Below, piece by piece: positions 59,272 through 59,457 of a stretch of DNA of 64,000 nt. How positions within the stretch are numbered: position 1 is the stretch's first letter; each line of letters starts with the position of its first letter. The stretch lies in the IMG/VR virus record IMGVR_UViG_3300017774_003070, positions 39,830 to 103,829 of that record; one strand, written 5' to 3'. Origin of the DNA: a virus. Position numbers and translations under genes: made by a program. The notes beneath the pieces were generated by a model, which saw only the letters and a list, made by a program, of their open reading frames with translations, was not told the DNA's origin and ran no database searches.

Positions 59272-59457
59272 TGGTAGTTTGCACAGGATTTGAACTTTAC
59301 TAATTTTTAATTAGTATAAGATTTAAAAGTTCTCACTTTTAAAACCTGTATTTCAGAATTAAAGCAGTTTCCTAACCCCTAGAAGAAGTAAGTTAATACT
59401 ATTGGATTTGAACCAATGTTTCTGTGTCTCTGTGTCCTCGCATTAGACGAGCAAACT
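59272..59457 (-). ncRNA. Nested double-elbow tRNA-like RNA ending in CCA
   Basis: Outer acceptor AGTTTGC/GCAAACT-A-CCA with D and T arms; inner permuted T-AS-D module replaces the anticodon loop; 50-nt double-hairpin insert in the outer T arm. Confidence 0.75.

Follow-up and report, generated by a model that had tools for sequence, protein, structure and literature searches.

The tRNA-like domain of YrlA, a bacterial Y RNA (RF02553), is built in a permuted order, in which a variable loop (V), a T arm, a closed acceptor-like stem and a D arm follow one another (Chen et al. 2014, PMC4201824). RNAs of the YrlA type occur in phages too. Phages also carry tRNAs with which they withstand host defences aimed at tRNA (van den Berg et al. 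2023 PMC10264068; Burman et al. 2024 PMC11464382; Azam et al. 2024 PMC11555353). Here we describe a phage RNA gene at positions 59457-59272 on the minus strand of the window, in which one tRNA body appears to enclose a second, permuted one. The window is the whole stretch of DNA analysed, the right-hand 64 kb of a 103.8-kb IMG/VR phage record, which is 96% complete and comes from a freshwater metagenome. Judged from its sequence, this nested RNA is a real and conserved gene, derived from tRNA-Glu, with a two-body nested architecture. It almost certainly cannot read codons.

The basic form of the nested RNA has about 133 nt, and the copy of the window phage has 183-186 nt. A script parse of the window copy delimited its segments and located all eight helices of the nested model, with 37 of 37 pairs present. 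The letters agree exactly with those listed in a first-pass annotation of this DNA, which had proposed an outer tRNA frame around an inner module running from T arm through closed acceptor to D arm, and had claimed that the outer 5' half pairs only with the last 3' half. Both proposals stand. As read from the sequence, neither half is able to form an acceptor stem by itself, so that only the cross-pairing works. The parts of a canonical tRNA body are present, namely a 7-bp acceptor stem, a D arm, the T loop TTCAAAT, a variable loop and the tertiary positions. U8/A14 is found in both modules. In the outer module, the Levitt pair is formed by A15 and U48 of AAAT, and in the inner module by G15 and C48 of AAAC. 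Each module thus finds its Levitt partner within itself, whereas two tandem genes would give A15-C48, which argues for the nested reading.

The neighbouring SleB-type hydrolase (58527-59033) has 46 relatives, and metagenome contigs were scanned with an alignment of hydrolase homologues. The scan yielded seven contigs, L061-L067, three of which carry the nested RNA. L063, with a hydrolase 88% identical to that of the window, holds a clean, insert-free version of 133 nt. The version in L062 (hydrolase 74% identical) has 111 nt, a 22-nt deletion having removed precisely its inner variable loop and T arm, and that in L064 (65%) is cut at the 5' end. The relatives keep the nested plan, and the substitutions among them respect it. 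Between the window and L063 we counted 10 substitutions. The 74 paired positions are free of them, every one lying in a loop or joiner (hypergeometric P = 1.9e-4). The sole stem change in the lineage, A1 to G1 in L062, retains a G-U pair. In L062 and L064, whose hydrolases are only 74% and 65% identical, 62-77 nt of the 3' part match at 100%. All copies agree letter for letter between the inner D arm and the 3' acceptor strand, with flanking coding DNA at ~75-86% identity. In the alignment of these copies, MAFFT misplaced the 3' end of the window copy owing to an insert of 50 nt.

This insert lies in the outer T loop and is confined to the window lineage, being absent from L062, L063 and L064. 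Its boundary is ambiguous by 2-3 nt, as GTT is repeated at both ends, and no second copy was found in the genome or in IMG/VR. In order to check the assembly, Logan contigs of four sequencing runs were compared with 58900-59700, and the probable source run covers all of it. A contig of run X4, from an independent freshwater run and study, runs through 59270-59488 with 3 mismatches and no gap; beyond this segment it continues into a different tRNA-like gene. A contig of run X2 extends from 59143 to 59332 and takes in part of the insert. The insert is therefore present in two independent runs, and the nested order together with the T-loop insert represents real DNA in several samples. Misassembly, which the first-pass annotation had named as a possible refutation, is excluded by the X4 contig. 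The nested RNA persists across several freshwater samples and years.

Features of the nested RNA and of the surrounding genome. Positions are those of the window unless a contig is named; (-) marks the minus strand.
Feature	Position	Sequence	Remarks
Outer acceptor stem, 5' strand	59451..59457 (-)	AGTTTGC	Partner 59276-59282 (GCAAACT), 7/7 Watson-Crick; kept in L063; L062 carries G1, giving a G-U pair
Positions 8-9 and outer D arm	59434..59450 (-)	TC; GTCT-AATGCGA-GGAC	Glu-type stem; loop without GG; loop AACGTGA in L063 and L062, stem unaltered
A26 and outer anticodon stem, 5' strand	59428..59433 (-)	A; CAGAG	Partner TTCTG 59354-59358, 4 Watson-Crick pairs and 1 G-U
Joiner, inner stem strand, inner variable loop	59418..59427 (-)	ACA; CAG; AAAC	CAG pairs with CTG 59365-59367
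Inner T arm	59401..59417 (-)	ATTGG-TTCAAAT-CCAAT	Loop TTCGATT on the same stem in L063; arm deleted in L062
Loop-closed acceptor-like hairpin	59387..59400 (-)	AGTA-TTAACT-TACT	5/6 loop letters changed in L063, stem unaltered
TC, inner D arm and A	59368..59386 (-)	TC; TTCT-AGGGGTTA-GGAA; A	Canonical D loop with GG; identical in L062, L063 and L064; stem matches the D stem of a bona fide phage tRNA-Glu(UUC) in L073
Inner stem strand, joiner, outer anticodon stem 3' strand	59354..59367 (-)	CTG; CTTTAA; TTCTG	Identical in all four copies
Outer variable loop and outer T stem, 5' strand	59345..59353 (-)	AAAT; ACAGG	Variable loop AGAT in the X4 strain (59352 T>C, plus strand)
50-nt insert in the outer T loop	59295..59344 (-)		Two hairpins, one with a GAGA cap
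Outer T loop, T stem and acceptor 3' strand, discriminator, CCA	59272..59294 (-)	TTCAAAT; CCTGT; GCAAACT; A; CCA	CCA encoded
Class-II (Leu-like) tRNA-shaped gene	59085..59196 (-)		Same cluster; 22-26-nt insert, 31-nt anticodon loop
tRNA-shaped RNA	33120-33218 (-)	Acceptor GAGGCT/AGCCTT; T arm TCAGG-TTCGAGT-CCTGA	Anticodon stem TTGTAC/GTACAA encloses ~34 nt, including a CTATAG-GGAA-CTATAG hairpin
tRNA-like gene in a relative	L061, 184-253	Anticodon arm CCGA-GGCA-TCGG	Rfam tRNA 38.7 bits; 4-bp stem and GGCA tetraloop
RNA-ligase-family protein	47174-48316 (-)		PF09414, PHA02142 OB fold; adjoins an ERF recombinase in the replication module
Calcineurin-like metallophosphoesterase	61828-62463 (-)		
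Protein with N-terminal EAD11 domain	54045-54749 (-)		PF19964, 47.9 bits

The inner module (AAAC, T arm, AGTA/TACT, D arm) follows the YrlA order of PMC4201824, as the first-pass annotation had recognised, with the same U8/A14 and G15/C48 contacts; the stem beneath it is the counterpart of the anticodon stem. In contrast to YrlA, its acceptor-like stem has just 4 bp, and its base stem continues into the anticodon stem of a second tRNA, whereas YrlA has free 5' and 3' ends. Members of YrlA are recognised by a Ro60/Rsr gene within ~4 kb on the same strand. The 96%-complete genome was searched for Ro60/Rsr (TROVE, PF05731) with no match up to E = 1, while the controls responded; no G.CGAA of the Ro60 motif GNCGAAN0-1G occurs in 59051-59560 (-); and the YrlA model did not match the nested RNA at E up to 10 (gathering threshold 69 bits). 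On these three grounds, we rejected membership in YrlA.

Other tRNA-related RNAs resemble the nested RNA in part. Permuted tRNA genes, which Soma, Chan and their co-workers are said to have described in 2007 and 2011 in Cyanidioschyzon merolae and Thermofilum pendens, carry the 3' half before the 5' half. Such genes yield normal decoding tRNAs through cleavage at a bulge-helix-bulge (BHB) motif, circularisation and end processing. The inner module shares with them the precedence of the 3' half (T arm, acceptor 3' strand) over the 5' half and a short linker. However, its acceptor has 4 bp, it has no anticodon loop to re-join, and it lies inside another tRNA. The BHB and circularisation pathway is not known from bacteria, the hosts of the window phage. 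Like the two-piece, permuted tmRNA and other mimics, the nested RNA keeps an acceptor/T-arm domain and has its anticodon arm replaced, and the permuted order is found in some tmRNA lineages. Unlike tmRNA, it lacks G3-U70 (its acceptor pair 3-70 is U-A), a tag reading frame and pseudoknots, and no tmRNA was reported by ARAGORN with option -m. The stable RNAs C and D of T4 were also considered and set aside, as the design is absent from them by eye. The anti-defence tRNAs of phages are likewise tRNA-shaped and phage-encoded, with altered anticodon loops, and are selected by tRNA-directed nucleases of the host. Those tRNAs decode and replace the cleaved host tRNAs, whereas the nested RNA could, as its sequence suggests, act only as a decoy or binder.

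The nested RNA also resembles bacterial and phage tRNA-Glu(UUC). Both bodies are of Glu type, with U8-C9, D stems GUCU/GGAC or UUCU/GGAA containing U13-G22, and 4-nt variable loops. The bona fide tRNA-Glu(UUC) gene of the IMG/VR locus L073 reads TC-TTCT...GGAA-A-CCACC-CTTTCAA, and the nested RNA reads TC-TTCT...GGAA-A-CTG-CTTTAAT, which is very close. This near-match, extending into the anticodon loop, suggests that the gene is a rearranged duplication of tRNA-Glu. Most simply, the joiner CTTTAA(T) would be the fossil of a CUUUCAA-type anticodon loop like that of the phage tRNA-Glu. In contrast to tRNA-Glu, the nested RNA has no anticodon hairpin, its halves have no acceptor stem of their own, and its outer D loop lacks GG.

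ARAGORN in default mode calls no tRNA gene in the window or in the whole genome, and Rfam gives no match on the window at gathering thresholds. A permissive local scan with the Rfam tRNA model (RF00005) returns fragment matches on the nested RNA at 16-18 bits (E 0.8-2.3), with a gathering threshold of 29. Default ARAGORN is thus blind to the nested RNA, and the Rfam signal stays at the level of tRNA fragments, with none for YrlA. No hairpin with a 5-bp anticodon stem and a 7-nt loop is recognised by the finders. When introns are allowed, ARAGORN calls L063 and L062 as tRNA-Stop(tta), with introns of 64 and 42 nt at 31/32, a stem ACAGA/TCTGA and a canonical loop with C32, U33 and A37. Indeed, CTTTAAT beside TCTG looks like a canonical 7-nt loop (C32 U33 UUA A37 U38). 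The earlier statement that the RNA has no anticodon is thus right as to the hairpin, and overlooks the relic Glu-type loop CTTTAAT.

The same helix plan recurs, with entirely different stem sequences, in unrelated phages. A scan of IMG/VR for loci in which the anticodon region between a Glu-type D arm and a T arm is too short gave 33 loci with 23 distinct sequences. Among them, L073 carries the stems TACCG/TGGTA, TGATG/CATCG and CGTGGGG/CTCCATG, and the group of L081, L087 and L093 carries CCTTG/TGAGG, TTGG/CCAA and TAAGCTG/CAGCTTA. These RNAs lie inside rows of ordinary tRNA genes and are not called by ARAGORN. The joiners of L073 and L081 have just 2-3 nt (AC, GAC), so nothing in them can serve as an anticodon. 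Helices were parsed by script across lineages, as the MAFFT alignment of different lineages was structurally inconsistent. A provisional two-headed class can be defined by one acceptor stem enclosing two D and two T arms, by two stacked anticodon-type stems with short joiners between them and by the lack of an anticodon hairpin. The plan is found in the window, L063, L073 and L081/L087/L093, with the window and L062 as variants in which one T arm is interrupted or lost. No description of such an RNA was found in Rfam or in the searchable literature, in agreement with the first-pass annotation.

Most other matches of the scan are single Glu-type bodies, whose anticodon arm is truncated or absent. 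A Glu-type tRNA-like gene of ~60 nt without any anticodon arm, nearly identical in sequence, occurs on six IMG/VR contigs of 8-213 kb (L083, L086, L090, L092, L101, L103); it reads GGACA-TTAGAAT-T arm and has a 7-bp acceptor stem. In L075, L076, L078, L082 and L102, Glu-type bodies have anticodon stems of 3-4 bp and loops of 4-6 nt. Two similar-looking loci are ambiguous and were not counted: part of L099 is a tRNA-Gly by ARAGORN, and L094 forms mini hairpins of its own. Scanning 43 tRNA-rich loci for double T arms revealed, besides L063, ordinary tandem tRNAs only.

Direct searches for the nested RNA returned little. In IMG/VR, the hydrolase search alone gave no close relative, the DNA polymerase search gave only relatives at 28% identity, an 18-mer of the inner T arm hit ordinary tRNAs only, and a conserved 19-mer had no match. 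A 24-mer scan of the GTDB genomes also had no match. Among cultured phages, BLAST found no homologue of the nested RNA and no relatives of the L073 and L081 analogues. The one match for the nested RNA lies in Alicyclobacillus phage KKP_3916, where its first 57 nt align colinearly with a Glu-type tRNA-like gene of a single body. The tRNA row of that phage (L071, OQ846916) holds two unannotated genes, one a Glu-type tRNA-like gene with a 6-nt anticodon loop (1497-1568) and the other a tRNA-shaped gene of ~130 nt (~1720-1850), with the acceptor CTAGACAAGT/ACTTGTCTAG, the T arm GGG-TTCGAAT-CCC and a very large internal insert.

In terms of pairing, the nested model of L063 forms 37 of 37 canonical pairs, whereas 20,000 shuffles averaged 14.2 and never exceeded 26. 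Several observations weigh against the nested reading. The nested fold is not the minimum free energy (MFE) fold: it was calculated at -23.1 against -34.3 kcal/mol for L063 and at -24.2 against -28.7 kcal/mol for the window copy minus its insert, a gap of 4.5-11 kcal/mol to the predicted MFE. G18G19 is missing from the outer D loop, and the 50-nt insert should break the outer elbow of the window copy. No compensatory double change occurs within the window lineage, only three close full-length homologues are at hand, and phages may have exchanged the identical 3' block recently, which would explain it without purifying selection. Moreover, no protein neighbour is common to the lineages, and no conserved partner gene lies beside the RNA.

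With regard to folding, the extra MFE helices of L063 are built from loop letters specific to L063. The strand TTCTG has an alternative partner, CAGAA at 59420-59424, which is all Watson-Crick and is preferred over CAGAG by RNAfold; L062 has CAGAG only. The helices listed in the first-pass annotation are therefore all pairable, and the fold that they form is not the one favoured by energy. Two further statements of that annotation need to be narrowed. It had spoken of a CCA-ending RNA, which is true of the window copy and is not conserved (L063 ACAA, L062 TCCC, L064 GCTT). It had also regarded the RNA as bivalent. As a requirement this is doubtful, since the outer T loop of the window copy is split, the inner T arm is lost in L062 and the outer D loop is without G18G19. 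Among the window, L062 and L063, only L063 has two intact T arms. Given the T-loop insert and the deletion in L062, either two intact heads are not required or some copies are decaying, and the window copy represents either an elaboration of the design or a partly disabled form of it.

The genome uses the standard code, with 87% of its length in open reading frames (ORFs) of at least 100 aa and TAA as the commonest stop. No canonical tRNA was found in the phage genome, and neither was a gene for Ro60, RtcB or a CCA-adding enzyme. The likely hosts of the phage may belong to the Bacteroidota. The ligase-family protein and the metallophosphoesterase could form an RNA end-healing and sealing pair, or they could be enzymes of DNA metabolism.

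The intergenic cluster around the nested RNA consists of tRNA-shaped genes with abnormal anticodon regions, and its content differs among close relatives, as in accessory loci. In L063, five T-arm motifs lie within 500 nt. The Leu-like gene next to the nested RNA scores 41.8 bits with the Rfam tRNA model locally, was missed in the whole-window scan and is called by ARAGORN in intron mode only; its homologue in L063 is 94% identical. We notice that its anticodon-like TTAG could pair with CTGA of its insert, a pairing that L063 keeps by a change from G-C to G-U. The tRNA-shaped RNA at 33120-33218 gave no Rfam tRNA match at E up to 10.

As read from the sequence, permuted V-T-AS-D modules (AS, acceptor-like stem) also stand alone in relatives (L062 466-535, L064 ~203-290, L063 ~1295-1420, L061 ~255-320). 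They have a short base stem, V, a T arm, a closed acceptor-like stem of up to 7 bp and a D arm, and they lie just upstream of the hydrolase gene, a place at which the window has none. The L062 module shows a weak match to Rfam YrlA (19.6 bits, E 3.7), the only one among the relatives. A structured-looking motif, AATAAC.C.TCGTTCAAGT..GGAC...GGAGTATTTT, is found directly upstream of the hydrolase start in L061 (~320-400), L064 (~290-370) and L066 (~1295-1375), and is absent from the window. Upstream of the nested RNA, L061 and L063 share with the window spacer at 59458-59553 (-) a hairpin, CTGAT-CATCTAA-ATCAG, as well as the motif TTGTA.AGATT...CTTTTACA; the two may be a promoter or processing signal of the cluster. 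An ORF of 80 aa, absent in the window, lies at 816-1058 in L063 and upstream of 218 in L062; its TAA stop falls inside the outer D arm, giving a 15-nt overlap.

Two rival explanations start from ordinary tRNA genes. If the inner module (64 nt in L063, 42 nt in L062) were excised and the ends ligated, a decoding tRNA would result, with a CUUUAAU loop (a UUA ochre suppressor) or another one. ARAGORN's intron-mode calls are in line with this, and so is the neighbouring Leu-like gene, whose insert at ~37/38 would leave AT-TAG-AT upon removal, together with the ligase-family protein and the metallophosphoesterase encoded by the phage. Nevertheless, we consider such splicing very improbable. We know of no splicing endonuclease route for such inserts in bacteria and of no other bacterial route for their removal; RtcB is not encoded, and the ligase, beside the recombinase, may act on DNA. 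The insert of 42-87 nt is tRNA-shaped, has no BHB geometry by reading and is too short for a group I intron, the core of which takes at least 200 nt. Excision would have to occur at the unusual position 31/32 and would leave either a 4-bp stem with an A-A mismatch or a 6-nt loop, in a molecule whose outer D loop has no GG. As the code is standard and TAA is the main stop, an ochre suppressor has no use and might be harmful. The joiners of the L073 and L081 analogues also speak against an intron, as does the tetraloop that L061 has in place of an anticodon loop. Alternatively, the locus might be a decaying mosaic of two tandem tRNA-Glu genes without a function of its own, its cross-pairing having been inherited from the duplication. 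Duplication in tandem is by itself enough to make the outer and the inner acceptor strands complementary, the match to the single gene of KKP_3916 is colinear, and the window insert and the L062 deletion would fit a decaying gene. Decay is nonetheless difficult to reconcile with a 3' block that stays identical while the neighbouring protein falls to 65-74% identity, with the avoidance of stems by all 10 substitutions, with the same plan built from other sequences in unrelated phages, and with persistence over samples and years. We regard this explanation as improbable.

Two more explanations accept a structured RNA and assign it another role. By analogy with YrlA, which joins Rsr and PNPase, the permuted module might dock Ro60/Rsr or an unrelated protein and tether it to another factor. 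The YrlA-defining order of the inner module and the stand-alone modules a few hundred nt downstream in relatives, including the weak YrlA match in L062, would fit such a scaffold. Apart from the negative searches for Ro60, its motif and YrlA itself, however, there is no long Ro-binding stem with free ends, as the stem runs into a tRNA, and no protein gene beside the RNA is common to the lineages; a scaffold of this type seems unlikely to us. Alternatively, the tRNA-shaped units, which lie between the upstream genes and the hydrolase gene, might direct RNase P and RNase Z to cleave the flanking mRNAs, or might shield the ends of these mRNAs. The cluster does lie between co-oriented minus-strand genes, the upstream ORF ends inside the D arm in L063 and L062, and a number of tRNA-like units that have no usable anticodon follow one another there. 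Such punctuation, however, needs an acceptor/T-arm minihelix only, and leaves the identity of the inner D arm and joiner and the two-body design unexplained; the analogues in other phages also lie within ordinary tRNA rows and not between protein genes. A processing or stability element is therefore hardly probable.

Taking the evidence together, the nested RNA is likely a real, selected and non-decoding RNA with the nested fold. The best explanation overall, which we favour by a modest degree of belief, is a tRNA-derived structured RNA that does not decode and would act by tRNA mimicry. That it works as a mimic by binding tRNA-recognising proteins has, in our estimate, about an even chance, and a specific role as an anti-defence decoy is put forward only tentatively. 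In the encoded and conserved design, a second Glu-type body, circularly permuted, takes the place of the anticodon loop of the outer Glu-type tRNA, and the two bodies stand head to head through their anticodon stems. Past this fold, all the steps are ones that we infer. A tRNA-Glu sequence would have been duplicated and rearranged, leaving the joiner as a fossil anticodon loop. The RNA would be transcribed together with the adjacent tRNA-like genes, its outer ends being cut by host RNase P and by RNase Z or exonucleases, and CCA being added where it is not encoded. It would not be used by the ribosome. Instead, it may occupy proteins that recognise the tRNA body by the elbow, the Glu-type augmented D helix or the acceptor end. 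The most plausible role of this kind would be that of a decoy or sponge for tRNA-directed enzymes of host defence or for toxins, and such a decoy would be harmless to the phage's own translation, because it has no anticodon.

On a broader view, we speculate, with considerable doubt, that phages repeatedly built two-headed mimics from a normal and a back-to-front tRNA body, as translation-neutral decoys or adaptors for tRNA-recognising enzymes of the host, and that in the clade of the window phage the whole cluster was converted to non-decoding nested, permuted, tetraloop-capped and insert-bearing forms. Candidate targets would be enzymes such as tRNA-directed immune nucleases, toxins that modify the acceptor end, and processing enzymes. 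It is also a possibility that the 50-nt T-loop insert and the inserts in anticodon loops are removed or remodelled by a new RNA-processing route of the bacterium or the phage.

Phages and bacterial immunity contend to a large extent over RNAs shaped like tRNA, and every phage countermeasure described so far is a working tRNA. If our reading is true, keeping two tRNA bodies and discarding the anticodon is a different strategy, one of pure mimicry. The YrlA concept, a tRNA-like domain in permuted order, would also be extended to RNAs that lack Ro60. Because neither tRNA finders nor Rfam can see the design, phage genomes at present carry no annotation of it. With its small basic form of 133 nt, the RNA is open to direct testing in vitro, and it could explain why some phages retain 'broken' tRNA genes.

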